From an uncultured Lachnospiraceae bacterium (lineage in GTDB: Bacteria; Bacillota; Clostridia; Lachnospirales; Lachnospiraceae), in the NCBI GenBank assembly GCA_934351925.1, contig CAKRJT010000002.1, positions 45,039 to 109,038 of the forward strand: 64,000 nt of DNA. The letters run 5' to 3'. Both the position numbers and the translations under genes were made by a program. Positions 3,805 through 61,582 of this stretch are shown here, one piece after another; position 1 is the stretch's first letter; every line of letters begins with the position of its first letter. The notes under the pieces were generated by a model, which had not been told where the DNA came from, ran no database searches, and was given only the letters and a program-made list of their open reading frames with translations.

Positions 3805-4926
3805 CTACAAGCTGTATCTTTCGTTCTTCTCCACAACGACCTTAACTTTGCCGTCCTCACCTGCATATCTGCAATTAGAACGAATCGTATCCCTGCTCTC
3901 CACAATGCAATTCTCAATAACCGTGTTGTCACCTATATACACATCATTCAGGATGATGGAATTGCGGATTACACAATTATTTCCTACAAATACCTTCTTG
4001 AATAAAACAGAATTCTCAACCGTACCGTTGACAATACAGCCACTTGCAACAAGTGAATTTTTAACCTCGGAACCCGGATTGTACTTAGCAGGAGGAAGGT
4101 CATCAACCTTGGAATAAATATCAGGATACTGGTTAAAGAAGAATTCCCGCACGTCCCTCTTTAAGAAATCCATATTGGTCTTATAGTAAGCATCGACCGT
4201 GGAGATATTGTTCCAATAGCTCTCAAGCTTGTAGCCGTATACTCTCTTGATGTTCTTATATCTTATGAGTATATCCTTTACAAAGTCATATCTGTCCTCT
4301 AAAGCTGCCTTCTCAAGAAGCTCAATAAGCTGACGTCTTCTTATAATATAGATACCTGTTGAAATAATATTTCCCTCTGCCTCAATAGGCTTCTCCTCAA
4401 AATCAGTAATTCTCATATCCTGATTCATTCTTACCACACCAAAACGACCGGCATCTTCACCCGCAGGAAGCTCCTTCACAACCACCGTGATATCTGCCTT
4501 CTTCTCGATATGGTACTCGAGCACCTTGGCAAAATCGAGCTTATACACGCCGTCGCCCGAGGCGATAACTACATACGGTTCATGGCTGTTCTTGAGAAAA
4601 TCTATGTTCTGGTACATACTGTCAGCGGTTCCCCTGTACCACACGCTGTTGTCAGCAGTTATGGTAGGATTAAAAACATACAGACCGCCCTGCTTACGTC
4701 CGAAATCCCACCATTTCGATGAGCTCAGATGATCATTGAGGCTTCTCGCATTATACTGTGTAATAACCGCAACCTTCTGTATATGTGAATTAGACATATT
4801 GCTCAGTGCAAAATCGATGCTCCTGTAACTGCCTGCTATCGGCATGGCAGCCACAGCCCTGCGGCTTGTGAGCTCCTTCATCGCCTTATTATTTCCGCCT
4901 GCTAATACAAGTCCTATCGCTCTCAT
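3805..4926 (-). CDS. glgD: Glucose-1-phosphate adenylyltransferase, regulatory subunit GlgD
   Basis: ADP-glucose pyrophosphorylase fold (GLVLAGGNN...) with a left-handed beta-helix C-terminus. It overlaps the glgC stop by 4 nt, as in Firmicute glgCD pairs. Confidence 0.85.
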
Positions 4927-53490: not shown

Positions 53491-55536
53491 ATGGTTAAAT
53501 ACAGCAAAATTTTATCTATTGCCCTGATATCAGCCATGCTGGTCACAGGGTGCAGTGCCAACAATTCAAGCACAGCCACGGACAGCAGCTCCACTGAGCT
53601 TTCCACAACAGTAAGCTCAGGCAGCTCAATGACAAATTCAGGCAGCACTGACAATTCAGACGGAGCAATAACTTCGACTACGATATCCTCCGTCGCCTCC
53701 GTCGACACATCGGATATGTTCACCAACCGCGACAGGGAAATCGGCTACGACGAGAGCACAAGTGTAAAGCTCGTCCTCGGCGGAGACACCATAAGCAGCA
53801 GCTCCGAGTCCGTCACTATTTCGGGCTCCACGGCAGCCATAACGGAGGAAGGAACCTACATTATATCCGGCACATTAAATGACGGCATGATTATAATTAA
53901 TGCCGATGACAGCGCGAAGATCCAGCTCGTGCTCGACAACGCCAACATAAACAGCAGCACCTCGGCAGCCATCTATGTCTGCAATGCCGATAAAGTATTC
54001 ATCACGCTTGCCGCCGGCTCCGAGAACACACTGTCAAACGGCGGTGAGTACATCACAACAGACGATAACAATATCGACGCCGTCATTTTCTCCAAGGACG
54101 ATCTGACGCTCAACGGAAGCGGCAGCCTCACAATAAACGCTGCGGCAGGCCACGGAATTGTCTCAAAGGACGACCTTGTTATCACAAGCGGCACCTACAA
54201 TATCACAGCCGCAAGCCATGGTCTCTCAGCCAAGGACAGCGTGCGGATAGCGGACGGCAGCTTCACAATCGTATCCGGCAAGGATGGAATACATGCAGAA
54301 AATACTAATGATGACACAAAGGGATTTGTCTACATCGCAGACGGAACCTTTGATATAACTGCAGCAGGCGACGGCATTGATGCCGGTTACTACCTGCTTA
54401 TCGAAAACGGCGGCTTTGACATCACAACCGAGGGCGCTGACAGCGGCACCAGCACCAAGGGACTCAAGGCTGACGGCGACCTTACCGTAAATAACGGAAC
54501 CTTCGTAATCAATACCACCGATGACGCACTCCACAGCAACTCCAATGTGACCGTAAACGGCGGCAGCTTCTCAATAGACACGGGCGATGACGGCATACAT
54601 GCAGACAATGCTCTTGTGATAAACAGTGGCTATATCGATATAGCTGACTGCTACGAGGGTCTTGAGGGTCTCACCGTCACGGTAAACGACGGCACAATAA
54701 GCATCAACGCCTCCGACGACGGTATAAACGCCGCAGGCGGAACAGACTCAAGCGGCTTTGGCGGCTTCGGTCCCGATGCCTTCGCAGCCAACTCTGATGC
54801 GAATATCTATATCAACGGCGGAACAATCTACATTGATGCGGACGGCGACGGAATAGACTCCAACGGAAATCTCTATGTATCCGGCGGCGGGATATATGTA
54901 TCCGGTCCTGAGTCAAGTGCTGACGGAGCCCTCGACTACGACGGCGAAAGCTCCATCACAGGCGGAACCCTGATTGCCACAGGCGCATCCGGAATGGCTG
55001 AGAACTTCGGCTCCTCCTCAACCCAGGGAAGTATTCTTGTGACCTTCACGACACAGGCTGCCGGAACGACAATAAGCCTCCTCGACGAGTCGGGAAACGA
55101 GCTTCTCTCCCGGCAGTCTGACAAGACCTACAGCAGCGTTGTCATAAGCTCACCTGACATCGTAACCGGAAACACATACACCATCAAGGCAGGCACCTAC
55201 GAGACCACAGTGACCATGGACAGCACCATCTACGGAAGCGGCATGGGAATGGGCGGCGGCTTCCCGGGCGGAAATGGCGGCGGAATGGGTGGTCAGAGAC
55301 CCGACGGCGACAGCAACAGTGGTTTCCCGGGTGGTCAGAGACCTGATGGCGACAGCAACGGCATGGGCGGTCAGAGACCTGACGACAGCAACGGGGGCTT
55401 CCCAGGCGGAAATGGTGACATGACCCCGCCTGACGGAAGTTCTGACATGACTCCTCCTAGCGGTGACGGCAGCATGACTCCCCCTAGTGGCGGTGGAAAT
55501 AGCGGAAACGGAAATGCGGGTGGTCAGGAGACTTAA
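53491..55536 (+). CDS. Large lipoprotein with parallel beta-helix-like repeats (carbohydrate-binding-domain/DUF4353-like) and a Gly-rich repeat tail
   Basis: The lipobox is LVTGC. Repeated ..DDGIHA../..GDGID.. motifs are present, and the C-terminus has GGQRPDGDSN repeats and MTPP repeats. Confidence 0.7.
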   Translation: MVKYSKILSIALISAMLVTGCSANNSSTATDSSSTELSTTVSSGSSMTNSGSTDNSDGAITSTTISSVASVDTSDMFTNRDREIGYDESTSVKLVLGGDTISSSSESVTISGSTAAITEEGTYIISGTLNDGMIIINADDSAKIQLVLDNANINSSTSAAIYVCNADKVFITLAAGSENTLSNGGEYITTDDNNIDAVIFSKDDLTLNGSGSLTINAAAGHGIVSKDDLVITSGTYNITAASHGLSAKDSVRIADGSFTIVSGKDGIHAENTNDDTKGFVYIADGTFDITAAGDGIDAGYYLLIENGGFDITTEGADSGTSTKGLKADGDLTVNNGTFVINTTDDALHSNSNVTVNGGSFSIDTGDDGIHADNALVINSGYIDIADCYEGLEGLTVTVNDGTISINASDDGINAAGGTDSSGFGGFGPDAFAANSDANIYINGGTIYIDADGDGIDSNGNLYVSGGGIYVSGPESSADGALDYDGESSITGGTLIATGASGMAENFGSSSTQGSILVTFTTQAAGTTISLLDESGNELLSRQSDKTYSSVVISSPDIVTGNTYTIKAGTYETTVTMDSTIYGSGMGMGGGFPGGNGGGMGGQRPDGDSNSGFPGGQRPDGDSNGMGGQRPDDSNGGFPGGNGDMTPPDGSSDMTPPSGDGSMTPPSGGGNSGNGNAGGQET

Positions 55537-55574
55537 AGAGCGATTATATAGAAATATGTTTTATGGGATAAAGG

Positions 55575-55615
55575 AAAAAGGGAGACGATTTAATATTGTC
55601 TCCCTTCTTCCTTTA
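55575..55615 (+). terminator. Rho-independent terminator after the lipoprotein gene
   Basis: GGGAGAC (55580-55586) ... GTCTCCC (55598-55604) is followed by TTCTTCCTTT. Confidence 0.7.
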
Positions 55616-55774
55616 AATTTTCACAATGGCGTTGTTAAAAAATGAATTACCGCCTGATAATATGTATTAAACCTTTAAGCGGTAATCATTAAGCAAAGCC
55701 TAATGTTAGCGGACAGTGTCACATTGCATTTTGCAGTTTCACGGCAGTCACATACTCCCAAAAAGGTATTAAAC

Positions 55775-56308
55775 TCAAGTTATCGACCGTTTTAGCTCCC
55801 CGATGCGGTCCAGAACCAGCATGATATTGCTGGAATTTGCGCGGAAATTATTTGCTGAGAGCTGTTTTTGACTGACCTTTAATATCATCTTTCTTTCCTT
55901 GAATTTTGCCGCTGTTTTCTTCTTCCGGTCATCAACCACCTTATCTCCTAAATACACCTGTTCAACATCTTTGCAGAACCAGACAAATTCATATTCTTTT
56001 TCATCACAATATCTTTTTGCCTCCTTCAAGAAATCGGCATCACCCTGATTGATGTCATAATCATCACAATCAAAACAGAATATTACCTTTGACTGATTAC
56101 TTTTCGAGGCCGCCCTGTATTGTGAAATCAGATTGTTGATTTCCTTCTCTTTTTTATTGTACTTCCACTTTCCTTCCATATATACCACACTGAACTTAAC
56201 CTGCGTGCGTTCATACGAATAAAAATGCTCTATCGTATCCTTTATATATATCCAGTCTGAGTTGCATTTTCTGGTCGTCTCAACGACAAAAATTATCTGA
56301 AGTCCCAT
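55775..56308 (-). CDS. 177-aa TOPRIM/RloB-like small protein, partner of the upstream ATPase
   Basis: Its ATG overlaps the ATPase stop (TAATG). The acidic pattern is E10 (IIFVVETT), D80-C-D82-D83 (VIFCFDCDDYD), then FVWFCKDVEQVYLG. It resembles RloB/DUF4435/DUF4276-type nuclease cores. This is inference only. Confidence 0.55.
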   Translation of the reverse strand: MGLQIIFVVETTRKCNSDWIYIKDTIEHFYSYERTQVKFSVVYMEGKWKYNKKEKEINNLISQYRAASKSNQSKVIFCFDCDDYDINQGDADFLKEAKRYCDEKEYEFVWFCKDVEQVYLGDKVVDDRKKKTAAKFKERKMILKVSQKQLSANNFRANSSNIMLVLDRIGELKRSIT

Positions 56309-57684
56309 TATTCGTCCTCCGCACCAGCCCCGAATATGCTGATAAAATCTGTTGCGTCGACGTTAAACGGCGACCCCTCTATCATTCCGTTTCTGTAGAG
56401 CTTGGAAGGAGAGTAGTTGCCGTTGGTCGTCCACGGGTAAATTTTATGATTTTCAGACAGAAAATCGATGGACTTCTTATGCTGCTTTAAAACGTCCATA
56501 GGTCCCACATTGTGCGTTGTAAAGCAGAGCTGCCCCTGTCCGTACTCCATCAGATACTCAAGCAGGGCGCACAAATATACATCATGGAGATTTGAGTCTA
56601 ACTCATCGATGAAAACTATCCCGCCACGCACCATTTCATTTATATATGCGAATAATTTTATGAGCTTTTTTATACCCGTGCTCTCATATTCCGTGTGTAT
56701 TTTATATCCATCATACACCATGACCAAATCGCAGACCCAAAAGTCTTTATTCTCTTTTTTGTCAATTTCAATTCCCCTCAGGTCCGATTTGAAAATGTGT
56801 AAAAATTCGTATAGCTTAGAAATTGTCTCCTCATATTGCCCATATAAACCCTTAAATACACGGTTTCCCCTTATTGTCAACACATTCAGGTAATCATTGT
56901 CCATATCCCGTAAATTGTTTATCAATGAGTCAAATTGGTCATCGTAATTTTCAGTATCAAGATATGATTTCAAGGAATTGAAGGTAATGTACGGCTTATG
57001 ATCATCGGACTGGTCAAGATAGACATGCAGCCTTCTGCCAAACGCAAAAAGACCAAATATGCCTATCCACAAAACACTTTTTGTTTTTGGAGGTATATTT
57101 GATTTTGTGTCCAGAAACTTTTTATTGAAAATGGAACTGACCGAGGCTGTAGACAACAGGTTCATGGTCTTATTTAATAATTCCACATAAAACTCGTCCT
57201 GCCCGTCATCTGTGTAGGCCGACACAAGCTCTCCGTCAGCCACATCAAAAAGAACCGCCATTGACTCACTTTTTGATAATGCTCTTCTAAACGATAACTG
57301 CTCCCTGGAGATAACATATCTGCCGGTATTATCCTTTGACAGTGTCACCATATATTTAAAAAGCACCGGGTCGTTCGCGCCTTTTATCATATAATCTGCC
57401 TGTATATACAGCTCTCCAAGCTTCTTATTAATGATTGCCTCAAGATTTTTCTGGACAATCGGATTATTCAAATATGCAGCATCGACAATAATATTCCGCA
57501 AAATATCCACAGACGATATGATTGCCGATTTGCCCGAACCGTTCATTCCGTAAATTCCCTTAATATTATAGTCCTGCGTGTCAGGATTTCTTGTGATGGT
57601 TTTCTTGTAAAATGACAACGATACAAGCTCATCAAGCGTTTTTATCCCCTTAACGGAATAATTCACAAGATATATATTTTTCAT
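56308..57684 (-). CDS. ABC-type (AAA_21/OLD-N-terminal-like) ATPase, 458 aa
   Basis: It has Walker A GMNGSGKS, the signature-like ESTGIKKLIKLF, Walker B GGIVFIDELDSNLH and the H-loop CFTTHN. The start MKNIYL at 57684 lies behind GGAGGG. Confidence 0.85.
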   Translation of the reverse strand: MKNIYLVNYSVKGIKTLDELVSLSFYKKTITRNPDTQDYNIKGIYGMNGSGKSAIISSVDILRNIIVDAAYLNNPIVQKNLEAIINKKLGELYIQADYMIKGANDPVLFKYMVTLSKDNTGRYVISREQLSFRRALSKSESMAVLFDVADGELVSAYTDDGQDEFYVELLNKTMNLLSTASVSSIFNKKFLDTKSNIPPKTKSVLWIGIFGLFAFGRRLHVYLDQSDDHKPYITFNSLKSYLDTENYDDQFDSLINNLRDMDNDYLNVLTIRGNRVFKGLYGQYEETISKLYEFLHIFKSDLRGIEIDKKENKDFWVCDLVMVYDGYKIHTEYESTGIKKLIKLFAYINEMVRGGIVFIDELDSNLHDVYLCALLEYLMEYGQGQLCFTTHNVGPMDVLKQHKKSIDFLSENHKIYPWTTNGNYSPSKLYRNGMIEGSPFNVDATDFISIFGAGAEDE

Positions 57685-57727
57685 CTTCACCAACCCTCCG
57701 TTTATATCCCCAATATAGCACAAGCCC

Positions 57728-57762
57728 GGATAAAAATAAATACAAAATGTATATTTTTATCC
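57728..57762. repeat. 11-bp perfect inverted repeat just upstream of the ATPase gene
   Basis: GGATAAAAATA (57728-57738) and TATTTTTATCC (57752-57762) are separated by a 13-nt spacer. Confidence 0.5.
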
Positions 57763-57820
57763 AAGCTTGTATTTTTACTGTTTATTATTTCCATAAATTA
57801 AATTTTTATGATGTTGAGGT

Positions 57821-57868
57821 CAAATAGGAAAAAATTTGCTATGTATAACGGAATATGTTTATGCATAT
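57821..57868. repeat. Partial, decayed copy of the 18875-18967 palindromic element
   Basis: It shares the blocks CAAATAGG, TTTGCTATGTATAA, TATG and TTTATGCATA in the same order. It lies at the junction between the AT-rich islet and the LacI pseudogene. Confidence 0.45.
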
Positions 57869-57879
57869 CGCGACTTTTG

Positions 57880-58478
57880 TGAGAAGTTTAGATGTTCTTA
57901 GAACTCTGCCATGTGACCGGCCAGCCCATCGCGGTGCGTGGAAAGCCCGGCTCCCTGTCAACGAACTCCGGCTCCCCGTCCTTTCCCGCAATGTATTTTT
58001 CGGGGGTCTATGCTCCCGTGCTCCCTCTCCCTGTCCTCGATTATCCAGTCCTGCCTGACCTCGCAGCCGTGCTCCATCATCGCGCGCAGATACCCCATAT
58101 ATCTGTCCGTGATTGAACCTGTCGCAAGCACTGTTCCAATATAACCTATCTTCGTGTGTCCCATCTCAAAAAGATAGTTTGTCAGTCTGTACGCTCCGTA
58201 GTAGCTGTCAGATATGACCGCATCAGCTTCCTTCTTATTGTCGCAGAAGTCAAGGTATATCATCGGCAGGCTGCTGTTTTCACCCAGAAACTCGAGGTAG
58301 CCCCAGCTAAGCCGCCCCATGACAATTATTCCATCCACCCTGTTGTCAGTAACAAGCCTCGGAAGCTCATGTTTTTTCTCAGCCTCTATGCTGACAGGCT
58401 CCATGACCGCAAAACACTCCCGCGCGATGGCACGCCCATCCTTGCACCTATGTCCGCAAGACGCACTGTTTTTTTCAC
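57880..58478 (-). pseudogene. Decayed LacI-family regulator
   Basis: A GTG at 58478 overlaps the GH36 stop (GTGA) and encodes only VKKTVRLADIGARMGVP..., the first HTH helix, before the frame breaks. ORF 57958..58404 carries the mid sugar-binding domain (VDGIIVMG...GHTKIGYIG...DRYMGY). The C-terminal third is missing or frameshifted. Confidence 0.7.
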
Positions 58479-60742
58479 CTGAGTACCTCCTTCAAATGCA
58501 CCAGCGTGCTCTTAAAGTCCCCCCACATATTAGGAATTTTAAGCCCCGCGCTCATAAGCGTGTCACCGTGAAGCACCGTAGCCTGATTTTCACCATTATT
58601 GTCTCCGTTACCGCCATCAGTGCCAGCCCCTTCATACAGTATCTCATATTCCTTATCAGGTGCGAGTCCATCAAGCTTGATTATTCTGCTCTTGAAATTC
58701 GGTCTGTTAAGCACCTGAACGTAGGTCAGAAGCGCCTCCGATTTGTCCTTTGCCACCACCATGCAGCAGTCGTAGAGATTATTTTCCTGATACGAGGCAA
58801 TTCTGTAGTAGTCGCCGTTTCTTACAAGGTCGTTATACCTGTGGTAGGCTGCAATCTGCCCCGGAATGGCGGCTCTGTCCTCCTGCGGTATCCTTGTGAT
58901 GTCAAGTTCGTAGCCGAAGGTTCCGCAAAGAGCCACATCTCCCCTTGTCTTGAACGGTGTCACCCTGCCGACAGTGTGGTTCGGACAGTCGGACACATGC
59001 GCGCCCATCGCGGAGAGCGGATACATGAGGGCTGTTCCCTCCTGTATAGCGAGCCTCTCGATGGCATCCGTGTCGTCCGAGCACCATATCTGCGGGCTGT
59101 AATACAACATTCCCGCGTCAAATCTCGCTCCGCCGCCTGAGCAGTTCTCAAGCAGAAGATCCGGAAATTCCTTCGTGAGCCTTTCCTGAAGCTCATACAC
59201 CGCGAGCATGTATCTGTGCTCAAGCTCCCCCTGCCTGTCGTCAGGAAGGTAATTGCTGTGAAGGTCGGTGTGCTCACGGTTCATGTCCCATTTCACATAC
59301 TCGATATTAGCACTGCGGAGTATTCCGGCAACCGCCTCATAGCAGTAGTCCACAACCTCCGGTCTGGATAAATCGAGCACATACTGATTTCTCGAGCGGC
59401 ACGCCTCGCGCCCCGGAATGGCGATAGCCCAGTCAGGGTGCTCCTCGTAAAGCTTCGACTCAGGGGAAATCATCTCGGGCTCGAACCATATTCCGAACTT
59501 CAGACCGATTTTGTTCACCTCGTCGACAAGGTATTTGAGACCGCCTTGCAGCTTTTCCTCGTTCACGAACCAGTCGCCAAGACTCGTGCTGTCATCATTT
59601 CTGTGACCAAACCACCCGTCGTCCATGACAAGCATCTCTATTCCGCTCTTTTTTGCCTCGCGAGCAATGGCAAGAAGCTTTTCCGTATCAAAATTAAAAT
59701 ATGTAGCCTCCCAGTTATTTATGAGTACCGGGCGCTTTTTGTCCTTATACGGGCTTCTTATAAGGTGCTCCCTGTAAAGGTCATGCAGATTTCTCGTCAT
59801 CGCACCAAGTCCCGAGGCTGAATACGTCATAACCACCTCCGGTGCGAAAAACTCCTCCCCGGGTTCAAGTTTCCACTCAAAATTCTCCGGGTGGATACCC
59901 ATGAGAACCCTCAGGCTGTCAAACTGATTTTTCTCGACCTGTGCAAGAAAATTTCCCGAATACACGAAATTAAAGCCATAGACATGACCGCTCTTCTGCG
60001 AAGCCCCATTATCAACCAGCGCGATAAACGGGTGCTCCTGATGTGAGGATTTACCCTTGATGGAGCCCACACTCTGCTTGCCATAGCCGATTTTTCTAAA
60101 TTCCATCTTGCGCTCTCTCGCCCATGAGCCGTGAAGTGAGAGCAGCTCGTAGCCATCGTCAGGCAGGTCAAGCGCCGCGGACATAACCTTTGTGATGAAA
60201 ATATTCTTGTCCGAGTTATTTTTTAGCTTAACACTCCTTGTTATCACGTCCTGCTCAGGAAAAACGCTGTAGAAAAGTGTCGCCCCCAGTCCGATGTACG
60301 GGTCAAGCGCGTCGATTTCGAGCGTATACACCTTATTATCATTATCCGCACCGCTATGCTTATCTCCTGCAAATGTCGCCGGGAGTCCTTTTAACCCGGG
60401 CTTGCCCTCATATATCCTGTGCCCCGCATAAACAAGGCTCACCGCACGGCTGTTGTCCTCACAGCGCACCGATATGGCGCCCTCTCTGTAATCACCCACG
60501 TTGTTTCCCGGATACTCCGACAAAAAAGCATCGAAAAACGAGCCCCTCTCCCTGTTATTCTTCGACGGCACGAACGGGTTCTCGTCCGTTCTAAGAAGAT
60601 AATTCACGTCCGCGTCACTTATCCTGTCCCCATAGTATGCGTGACCGATGAAACCCTCGTCATCGACCACCGAAATTACATAGCTGCTGTTTTTCGTATC
60701 AAGCTTAAAGGAGCGCGACTCCTCATCAAAAAAAATACCCAT
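58475..60742 (-). CDS. Alpha-galactosidase (GH36)
   Basis: About 755 aa. It contains ...KRPVLINNWEATYFNF..., GIEMLVMDDGWFG, KFGIWFEPEM and YVKWDMNR, which are typical GH36 blocks. The start is MGIFFDEES. Confidence 0.9.
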   Translation of the reverse strand: MGIFFDEESRSFKLDTKNSSYVISVVDDEGFIGHAYYGDRISDADVNYLLRTDENPFVPSKNNRERGSFFDAFLSEYPGNNVGDYREGAISVRCEDNSRAVSLVYAGHRIYEGKPGLKGLPATFAGDKHSGADNDNKVYTLEIDALDPYIGLGATLFYSVFPEQDVITRSVKLKNNSDKNIFITKVMSAALDLPDDGYELLSLHGSWARERKMEFRKIGYGKQSVGSIKGKSSHQEHPFIALVDNGASQKSGHVYGFNFVYSGNFLAQVEKNQFDSLRVLMGIHPENFEWKLEPGEEFFAPEVVMTYSASGLGAMTRNLHDLYREHLIRSPYKDKKRPVLINNWEATYFNFDTEKLLAIAREAKKSGIEMLVMDDGWFGHRNDDSTSLGDWFVNEEKLQGGLKYLVDEVNKIGLKFGIWFEPEMISPESKLYEEHPDWAIAIPGREACRSRNQYVLDLSRPEVVDYCYEAVAGILRSANIEYVKWDMNREHTDLHSNYLPDDRQGELEHRYMLAVYELQERLTKEFPDLLLENCSGGGARFDAGMLYYSPQIWCSDDTDAIERLAIQEGTALMYPLSAMGAHVSDCPNHTVGRVTPFKTRGDVALCGTFGYELDITRIPQEDRAAIPGQIAAYHRYNDLVRNGDYYRIASYQENNLYDCCMVVAKDKSEALLTYVQVLNRPNFKSRIIKLDGLAPDKEYEILYEGAGTDGGNGDNNGENQATVLHGDTLMSAGLKIPNMWGDFKSTLVHLKEVLR

Positions 60743-60844: not shown

Positions 60845-61153
60845 TTATCCCACAGCTACACTTACATTCTGCGCTGTATACGAATAACTATCTGCATACA
60901 TAGTTTCCGGTGCGATATCAATCTCACCGTTAAGCCATGTCATTACGCCATGAAAAATTGTGAACTCAGATAGAATTTTTTCGTCCTTTAAAGGTTCAAA
61001 TGCGGAACCCGTTAATAATGTTGTATCAAACAATCTCTGCTCTCCCGTAGAGAATGTGAGCAAAAGCATGCCACCTCTTAAAACTGTAGCCGTTTTCACC
61101 TTAATGTCCGGTGTCGCTTCTCCCGCATAGCAAACATCATCAATAATATACAT
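60845..61153 (-). CDS. DUF2442-domain protein
   Basis: 102 aa. The segment ...LLLTFSTGEQRLFD...FHGVMTWLNGEIDIAPETMY is a DUF2442-like pattern. Confidence 0.7.
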   Translation of the reverse strand: MYIIDDVCYAGEATPDIKVKTATVLRGGMLLLTFSTGEQRLFDTTLLTGSAFEPLKDEKILSEFTIFHGVMTWLNGEIDIAPETMYADSYSYTAQNVSVAVG

Positions 61154-61166
61154 CTATAACACCTCC

Positions 61167-61430
61167 TTACATAGGGGCAATTTTATCAAAATGTTCTCCT
61201 CTGACAGCTAAATTCCATGCCTTATATGCTTCCTCTTCATGAAATGCCAACCAGCCGACTACCATTTTAAATTGCTTTTTTGGAAGGGAACCCGCCAATA
61301 ATTCTCCATCTATTCCAACGGCGGCTTCGTAATCACCATAGTACACATGTACATGTGGCTTATTATGTTGTTTCGTATCCATAAATAACATATAAATAAC
61401 CATTCCACCAAATCTGCTAAGTTCCGGCAT
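61167..61430 (-). CDS. DUF4160-domain protein
   Basis: The start MPELSRFGGMVIYMLFMDTKQHNKPHVHVYYGDYEA lies behind AGGAGGG. It shows the characteristic H-x-PH(V/F)H motif. Confidence 0.72.
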   Translation of the reverse strand: MPELSRFGGMVIYMLFMDTKQHNKPHVHVYYGDYEAAVGIDGELLAGSLPKKQFKMVVGWLAFHEEEAYKAWNLAVRGEHFDKIAPM

Positions 61431-61582
61431 TATATCCCTCCTTCTACACATTTCTATATTTATTATATCACACCACCCACCATTTCAAAAGACCAATGAT
61501 TTGAAATTTAGCATATTTCCCTTTTTCATATTTTCCCATGCAACCCGTTTTCTTTTCCGTCCTACATTGTCCCTTCCCACAA

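Follow-up and report, generated by a model that had tools for sequence, protein, structure and literature searches.

What kind of system is formed by two overlapping genes that lie in AT-rich DNA of an uncultured Lachnospiraceae bacterium? The genes are found on a stretch of 64,000 nucleotides (contig CAKRJT010000002.1, positions 45,039 to 109,038; hereafter the window) and encode an ATPase of 458 aa and a protein of 177 aa. The original prediction, made from the letters of the window, had proposed a compact anti-phage module in which an ATP-binding cassette (ABC) ATPase is the sensor and a small Toprim-type nuclease is the effector. The analysis showed that this reading was right in kind: the pair is an AbiL/RloAB-like ATPase-Toprim cassette whose effector family is unannotated, compact and divergent, and it probably represents an as yet uncatalogued form of a known type of anti-phage toxin/sensor system. 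The explanation that we favour, with fair but far from complete confidence, is an autonomous cassette consisting of a palindrome-containing promoter, an ABC ATPase and a small Toprim protein, which belongs functionally with the AbiL, RloAB, PARIS and HEC-01 conflict systems.

Organization of the two genes

Both open reading frames (ORFs) were found on the minus strand where they had been predicted, and the overlap of stop and start codons was confirmed. The TAA of the ATPase gene (56310-56308) and the ATG of the small gene (56308-56306) had one base in common (TAATG), and a GGAGG motif inside the ATPase gene (56320-56316) was located 7 nt 5' of this ATG. In the ORF list, the ATPase frame extended over 56308..57723 and encoded 471 aa counted from a TTG, but this TTG (57723) fell within the likely promoter. 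The ATG at 57684, which gives the 458-aa protein and is preceded by a GGAGGG ribosome-binding site (RBS), was favored as the start because the homologues were mostly 454-462 aa long. The GC content was 0.38-0.40 over 55500-58000 versus 0.50-0.59 on either side, in agreement with the predicted AT-richness. The “long non-coding flanks” described earlier were an overstatement: the upstream flank measured only 273 nt and the downstream flank 238 nt, and both were occupied, the upstream one by a conserved palindrome, an extended -10 element and the remnants of deleted genes, and the downstream flank by a bidirectional terminator hairpin. A scan of 55000-58600 with Rfam gave nothing credible. The features are collected in Table 1.

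The 458-residue protein is an ABC-type ATPase of the defence class

The motifs of the 458-aa protein followed the order of an ABC ATPase: Walker A G46MNGSGKS53, a signature-like E334STGIKKL341, Walker B I356VFIDE361, the D-loop D363 and the H-loop T389THN392. All of them were invariant in 39 homologues, including the Walker A (K52), signature-like, Walker B and H-loop motifs that had been read earlier. The protein matched Pfam AAA_21 (2.2e-10, 41.5 bits, cutoff 27) and, over nearly its full length (aa 4-440), the PADLOC AbiLi model PDLC02335 (E=3.2e-30, 103 bits). A partial match to AriA covered aa 225-392 (7.5e-12), and weaker PADLOC matches were obtained with an ATPase-Toprim model, HEC-01A (1e-7, partial) and PtuA. 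The AlphaFold2 (AF2) model had a pLDDT (predicted local distance difference test) score of 75.5 and a predicted template modelling (pTM) score of 0.79, and its best Foldseek matches in the PDB were Rad50 and the retron/Septu PtuA (E~1e-12, probability 1.0). Ordered motifs on an ABC fold, the mark of the Rad50/SMC-type superfamily, and a match to the AbiLi model, the mark of the AbiL ATPases, were both present in this protein. It is an ABC/Rad50-type ATPase of the defence class, as had been claimed, and has a complete ABC catalytic site. Its identity to a canonical RloB-associated ATPase was only 21%.

The last 40 residues of the ATPase were nearly invariant yet had low pLDDT in the AF2 model. 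Because of this combination, the C-terminal tail may bind a partner and become ordered upon binding. We propose that the ATPase serves as sensor and regulator, in an antitoxin-like manner.

The 177-residue protein is probably a distant relative of Toprim proteins of the RloB/OLD type

The 177-aa protein had no match in Pfam (none at E<=1) or NCBIfam, only noise in PHROGs, and none at E<=1 with the AbiLii model of PADLOC, in which a marginal match to HEC-01B (0.0084) was the only one. In the 90% collection, 471 close relatives of 173-186 aa were found, and none of them carried a Pfam annotation. A profile search extended the family to 742 clusters (50% identity), of which 528 had E<=1e-10; the length of almost every full-length member fell within 165-185 aa.

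Conservation was computed on 94 diverse members of this family. Residues D18, Y21, D80, D82 and N161 were invariant, and E10, K47, F111, E116, V118, K129, F136 and S160 were at least 90% conserved. The acidic pattern of the original prediction was therefore right for E10, D80, D82 and E116 and wrong for D83, which was not conserved, and it had not included the invariant D18, Y21 and N161. The AF2 model of the small protein (pLDDT 89.9, pTM 0.87) showed the strand succession β1(3-9)-α-β2(37-43)-α-β3(72-81)-α-β4(107-112)-α, followed by C-terminal helices. In this model, E10 ended β1, D80xD82 was located at the end of β3, and E116 lay just past β4. The published definition of Toprim is a Glu after β1 and a DxD after β3 (PMC12065111). 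Since both elements were found at these places, D80 and D82 without exception and E10 with a conservation of at least 90%, the acidic arrangement fits a Toprim domain.

To compare the family with RloB, a bait sequence was built from an RloB consensus; all of the 120 matches that it retrieved were annotated PF13707, and many were named “RloB family protein”. An hhalign comparison of the 94-member alignment with 45 genuine RloB proteins gave an alignment of 100 columns with a score of 24.7 (E=0.005, probability 7%), in which E10 was placed opposite the Glu of CEG, S17-D18..Y21 opposite T-E..Y, D80xD82 opposite DrD, and E116 opposite the SNPcFE Glu. All controls scored lower, with 13.0±2.1 for 60 column shuffles (maximum 18.4), 15.1±2.6 for 60 block shuffles (maximum 23.6) and 13.5 for the reversed profile. 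Searches of hidden Markov models (HMMs) against sequences between the two families, run in both directions, gave weak matches with a constant register. In a Pfam scan of the 94 members, 16 matched RloB below threshold (best 8e-4), and every other family was matched by at most three members. A few members matched RT-Toprim (7e-5), HEC-01B (4/94, best 1.5e-3) and mad4 in PADLOC, and none of the 94 matched DUF4276, DUF4435 or AbiLii (the last at E<=0.1). A Fusobacterium member, which is a clear homologue of the 177-aa protein (30% identity, E=2e-12), scored 22.6 bits on OLD-like_TOPRIM PF20469 (cutoff 23.2) and 18.5 bits on RloB PF13707. The gathering threshold of PF13707 (31.5 bits) was not reached. 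The HMM check that had been suggested with RloB, DUF4435 and DUF4276 was thus negative for the 177-aa protein itself, and its relatives reached RloB only below threshold.

The suggested fold comparison gave a mixed result. The best match of the small-protein model in BFVD was an “RloB-like protein” (E=1.1e-3, probability 0.99, TM 0.39), and no Toprim structure was found among the top 50 matches in the PDB. The PDB matches that did appear (Rab GTPases, an RNA kinase and lumazine synthase; TM<=0.35) were attributed to generic α/β similarity and not to homology, since the small-protein family has no P-loop. Sequence searches of the PDB with two small-protein profiles gave chance matches only (a ribosomal protein, Apaf-1 and Rab1A). 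Of the class assignment proposed earlier, the Toprim pattern on the expected strand order was supported, the relation to RloB was remote and weaker than claimed, and no family member matched DUF4435 or DUF4276. The evidence for the small protein as a relative of the RloB/OLD-type Toprim proteins that falls outside PF13707 is remote but consistent, and we propose that the protein is a metal-dependent nuclease effector, that is, a toxin.

The two genes are inherited together

One genome per GTDB species was searched for the small gene, which was found in 45 species, mostly Lachnospiraceae with some Oscillospiraceae, Erysipelotrichaceae and Peptostreptococcaceae; the cassette is common in gut Firmicutes. 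The ATPase gene was directly upstream in 43 of the 45 species, the exceptions being a contig end and a fragment, and its stop codon usually overlapped the start of the small gene. The pairwise identities of the two proteins co-varied (Mantel r=0.79, a value that 0 of 2000 permutations reached). The predicted co-conservation of the pair was confirmed by these two results. In all of 35 loci, the GC content of the pair was below that of the flanks, with a mean difference of 11.8 points. The pair moves between genomes together, as AT-rich foreign DNA. A search of plasmids and phages for annotated relatives gave no match to the small protein in plasmids, and for the ATPase it gave just remotely similar AAA ATPases that lacked an RloB partner (Cetobacterium, Oenococcus phage). 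Separately, the replicon NZ_CP084075.1 of Fusobacterium vincentii (locus L010), listed as plasmid pSB055A in PLSDB, was 2.1 Mb long with a single annotated feature; almost certainly, this record is a chromosome that the collection wrongly labels as a plasmid.

The neighbours of the pair were wholly different between species, in line with the earlier statement that it has no functional link to them. The pair was found in a polysaccharide biosynthesis cluster, among housekeeping genes, between hsdS and hsdR of a type I restriction-modification (R-M) system in Fusobacterium, directly after Wadjet JetC/JetD, and directly upstream of Ku and the ligase LigD in Erysipelotrichaceae. The association with defence genes was thus partly right: R-M, Wadjet or a canonical RloB pair was present at some loci and absent at many, including the window. 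The position next to Ku and LigD raises the question of whether the pair is an accessory of DNA repair or recombination instead of a conflict system, similar to RecF with RecR or to SbcCD-like processing. RecF, an ABC ATPase, and RecR, a Toprim protein, share the domain logic of the pair, and Rad50 is among the structural neighbours of the ATPase. We regard this explanation as very improbable. The Ku/LigD adjacency was seen in one lineage only, with different contexts elsewhere; the distribution was patchy and strain-variable; the pair was AT-rich foreign DNA at every one of the loci compared, and its small gene decayed frequently; and the sole NCBIfam recF match of the ATPase was trivial (E=0.012, on the P-loop).

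A conserved palindrome precedes the ATPase gene

The upstream flank contained two elements that had not been mentioned earlier, a palindrome and an extended -10 element. The palindrome ATACA-N3-TGTAT was present at 44 of 46 loci of different species, 57-81 nt before the ATPase start codon, whereas shuffled controls were found at 0.9 loci on average and never at more than 7. It occurred once in the window (expected 0.06). In 625 kb of species loci it was found 43 times, and 40 of these cases were the site upstream of the ATPase. At the species loci, the palindrome was followed by a conserved TGnTATAnT and then by GGAGG, and the distance of TGnTATAnT from the palindrome and from the RBS was constant in nearly all aligned upstream regions. 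This motif is a putative promoter element. It was missed by a simple sigma-70 scan, since no good -35 hexamer accompanies it. As far as the sequence can tell, the cassette brings its own promoter and operator-like site. Downstream of the small gene, the inverted repeat of the terminator had 21-nt arms that were 90% complementary; the terminator scan called it on the plus strand, and on the minus strand the stem was followed by TTTTCCTTTAT.

No recognisable helix-turn-helix (HTH) protein was encoded by the two-gene module. A conserved palindrome without an obvious HTH protein could mean that the small protein is not a nuclease but an adaptor or a DNA-binding regulator, for example the binder of the palindrome, and that the ATPase carries the real activity. 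The lack of a significant match to a solved Toprim structure, with generic α/β folds as the best PDB similarities, and the persistence of an intact ATPase without the small gene in several lineages are compatible with such a role. However, it would be hard to explain in a pure adaptor why D80xD82 is invariant, and E10 and E116 nearly so, at sites where metal ligands are expected, and the remote-homology signals all pointed to RloB or OLD-Toprim. A non-nuclease role is accordingly considered quite unlikely, and the small protein is treated below as a putative nuclease.

The small gene decays while the ATPase is kept

Among 42 informative species loci, the small gene was decayed in 10 (L061, L062, L064-L067 and L069-L072) by internal deletion, N-terminal loss or frameshift. 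The ATPase ORF was full-length in seven of these loci (L061, L062, L064, L065, L066, L067 and L069), and strict patterns of all four catalytic motifs matched in six of the seven, with L061 failing the Walker A pattern. In one Erysipelotrichaceae lineage, the pair was intact in some strains (L024-L027), whereas others (L020-L023) had only the ATPase and no trace of the small gene. The ATPase was never the sole decayed gene, despite a mutational target that is 2.6-fold larger. Such a pattern would be expected of a small protein that acts as a toxic effector and is restrained by the ATPase. The loss of the small gene with retention of the ATPase suggests either toxicity of the effector or an independent role of the ATPase. 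AAA ATPases have been shown to neutralise paired RloB-like Toprim toxins in toxicity assays (PMC10440598), and in PARIS the effector AriB is sequestered by AriA and then released (PMC11464382; review PMC13064643). The decay pattern agrees with both the neutralisation assays and the PARIS mechanism.

The same pattern would be produced by a selfish toxin-antitoxin (TA) addiction cassette with no dedicated anti-phage role, in which the Toprim protein is the toxin, the ATPase the antitoxin and the palindrome the operator, and which persists through post-segregational effects or drift. Besides the decay of the small gene next to an intact ATPase, the operator-like palindrome that accompanies the module, the validation of AAA-neutralised Toprim toxins as TA pairs and the missing defence neighbours at many loci speak for it. 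However, TA behaviour and defence are compatible, since PARIS does both; an ATPase of 458 aa with a fully conserved catalytic site would be a costly antitoxin unless it also senses; and some copies of the pair lie inside R-M and Wadjet loci. A purely selfish cassette is therefore judged to be unlikely, and a conflict system with a restrained effector is preferred.

Relation to known systems

The closest relatives in architecture are AbiL of Lactococcus lactis (AbiLi and AbiLii) and RloA/RloB of the type I R-M loci of Campylobacter. As in the present locus, they are two-gene operons in which the ABC ATPase precedes a separate small protein of Toprim type, and RloA/RloB (“restriction-linked ORFs”) are located between hsdS and hsdR, like one member of the family described here. 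The small protein aligned with RloB motif for motif, but the motifs CEGEKTE..Y and SNPCFELW of RloB corresponded to (V)ET...SD..Y and FCKD(I/V)E in the small-protein family. The lengths also differed, with 165-185 aa in this family versus mostly ~200-215 aa in the retrieved RloB proteins and 290 aa in the canonical RloB next to one family ATPase (L020). The “unusually small format” claimed for the 177-aa protein was thus overstated. In contrast to AbiL, neither the 177-aa protein nor its 94 relatives matched AbiLii of PADLOC.

PARIS likewise combines a sensor ATPase (AriA), to which the present ATPase matched in part (7.5e-12), with a separate Toprim effector (AriB, DUF4435). However, no AriB or DUF4435 match was found for the 177-aa protein or its relatives, AriB is a protein of ~35 kDa with a dimerisation domain versus ~20 kDa for the small protein, and phages or satellites are frequent carriers of PARIS, whereas the present module was nearly absent from viral contigs. 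HEC-01, a PADLOC candidate embedded in Hma systems, has the same two-gene architecture of ABC ATPase and Toprim, but the matches were far below family level (HEC-01A 1e-7; HEC-01B 0.0084, with a profile of 213 positions). The OLD family (P2 Old and GajA of Gabija) and PtuA of Septu and retrons share an ABC ATPase of the AAA_15/21 group, and OLD also shares the Toprim catalytic logic of a Glu after β1 and a DxD after β3. In OLD and GajA, however, ATPase and Toprim are fused in one polypeptide, while the present pair consists of two separate ORFs that overlap, as it does in 43 other species, and the partner of PtuA is an HNH nuclease and not a Toprim protein. The effector showed no match to AbiLii, AriB or DUF4435, none above the RloB threshold and one to HEC-01B far below family level, and the pair is in this respect distinct from canonical AbiL and PARIS.

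Proposed mechanism and its weight

In the mechanism that we propose, the ATPase would hold the small nuclease inactive, probably through its invariant unstructured C-terminal tail. A phage-derived trigger would cause an ATP-dependent conformational change that frees or activates the nuclease, which would then cut nucleic acid by a two-metal mechanism and bring the infected cell to growth arrest (abortive infection). Its target may be tRNA, as for AriB and P2 OLD, or DNA. The palindrome in the promoter probably permits autoregulation, as in TA operons.

Several observations weigh against the favoured explanation. Only 1 locus of the module was found in the 2.9 million viral contigs of IMG/VR, unlike PARIS, and the module was vertically stable between sister species. 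Most of the 124 nearest-neighbour genes in the 45 species were metabolic or housekeeping genes, with a minority of defence genes (AbiE, Abi_alpha, PbeA, Jet and ResIII), and the distal control neighbours also included defence genes, so that there was no valid background for enrichment. On the side of the effector, the hhalign probability was just 7% and one block shuffle reached 23.6, and none of the top 50 Foldseek matches in the PDB was a Toprim structure, all of them being generic α/β folds with E>1e-3. Finally, E. coli was not protected by HEC-01, which is the closest PADLOC candidate with this architecture.

A more far-reaching proposal joins these results. The 165-185-aa proteins would be a distinct, uncatalogued minimal family of Toprim toxins that forms, with an AbiLi-type ATPase and the ATACA-N3-TGTAT operator, a self-regulating three-part abortive-infection cassette missed by defence finders; the ATPase-Toprim complex itself would bind the palindrome, and it would be the toxicity of the effector that drives the recurrent loss of its gene, which about a quarter of the species show. 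Taken as a whole, this proposal is tentative and rather doubtful. To our knowledge, binding of a palindrome by an ATPase-Toprim complex has not been described for AbiL, PARIS or OLD systems.

If the favoured explanation is true, a cassette common in Firmicutes of the human and animal gut represents an unrecognised branch of the ABC-ATPase/Toprim immune systems; one ATPase cluster alone contained ~2,000 sequences. The effector is not recognised by Pfam, NCBIfam or PADLOC, and censuses of gut defence systems would therefore record at most an orphan AbiLi-like ATPase. With ~20 kDa, the effector would be among the smallest stand-alone Toprim candidates and a convenient minimal model for the restraint of a Toprim nuclease by an ABC ATPase. 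The palindrome carried by the module and the recurrent loss of the effector with retention of the ATPase give experiments on regulation and toxicity a concrete starting point. Specialists will recognise the architecture; the abundance, the invisibility to annotation, the palindrome and the effector loss add interest.

Genomic neighbourhood of the window and related loci

Table 1. Positions of the cassette, its control elements and neighbouring features. Positions are those of the window unless a locus number is given.
Feature	Position	Strand	Remarks
ATPase gene	56308..57684	minus	458 aa, ABC-type (Rad50/SMC-like), AbiLi type
Small-protein gene	55775..56308	minus	177 aa
RBS GGAGGG	57694..57699	minus	9 nt before ATG 57684; GGAGG conserved at other loci
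Candidate extended -10 element TGCTATATT	57712..57720	minus	read from sequence
Operator-like inverted repeat	57720..57770		19-nt arms 57720-57738 and 57752-57770
Conserved core palindrome ATACA-N3-TGTAT	57740-57752		13 nt, 68 nt upstream of the ATPase start codon
Bidirectional terminator hairpin	55569..55615		the small gene and the 681-aa Cthe_2159 gene converge on it
LacI-family fragment	57990-58437		joined to a 77-nt GH1 remnant, 57913-57989
DUF2442 (102 aa) and DUF4160 (94 aa)	60845-61153 and 61167-61451	minus	“TA-like pair” of the original prediction
Miniature inverted-repeat transposable element (MITE)-like copy	57841-57911		71-nt end
MITE-like copies	L028 8230-8468 and 10573-10785		
MITE-like copy	L016 9988-10200		
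MITE-like copy	L012 1265-1334		
Canonical AAA_15/AAA_21 ATPase (459 aa) and RloB (290 aa)	L020 2590-4834		absent in L023

The genes around the pair in the window encoded a histidine kinase and a response regulator, VTC, DUF4956 and Cthe_2159 proteins, a LacI fragment, a GH36 α-galactosidase, the DUF2442/DUF4160 pair and an ABC exporter, and this context was found on four metagenome contigs. In a sister species (L016), whose ATPase was 88% identical, the pair occupied the same site, and the operon beside it was intact (LacI, N-acetylglucosamine (GlcNAc) 2-epimerase, GH130, CE2, GDSL and GH1). An alignment of the two species revealed that the junction 57989/57990 of the window fuses the middle of the LacI gene to the GH1 gene through a deletion of 6.1 kb; the N-terminus of LacI (~220 nt) was also gone, at 58431-58437. 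The 6.1-kb operon of the sister species apparently serves the use of mannosides or of sugars through the GlcNAc epimerase. Insertion of the module into a LacI-type regulator was excluded, because the sister species has both the intact LacI...GH1 operon and the pair at the same site.

The decayed regulator and the TA-like pair that had been placed next to the module both exist, but the regulator is unrelated to it, because it is the scar of the deletion of the sugar operon, and the DUF4160/DUF2442 pair is 4.5 kb away, on the far side of the α-galactosidase gene. DUF4160 is among the effector domains of Menshen NsnC-like proteins (PMC12065111, 2025), and by analogy the DUF2442/DUF4160 pair may be another small conflict module.

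In the Erysipelotrichaceae locus L020, the canonical ATPase-RloB pair was located 4 kb upstream of the orphan family ATPase, in a strain-variable segment beside Ku/LigD, and its RloB (3962-4834) scored 100.3 bits on PF13707. At L026, a Tn916-type integrase and Xis were found where L020 has this pair.

A MITE-like element of 239 nt with terminal inverted repeats of ~30 nt (ATGTATAACGGAATATATTTATGTATATCG) was present near some of the loci. Two direct copies flanked the pair at L028, and the window retained one end only. The flanking repeats were rejected as a family-wide mobile unit, since the element is lineage-specific and absent from the loci of other species. In addition, the 681-aa Cthe_2159 gene contained three tandem 27-nt repeats at its 3' end (55402-55482), where they encode a repetitive C-terminal tail rich in Gly, Pro, Asp and Ser (…GGQRPDGDSN… / …DMTPP…).

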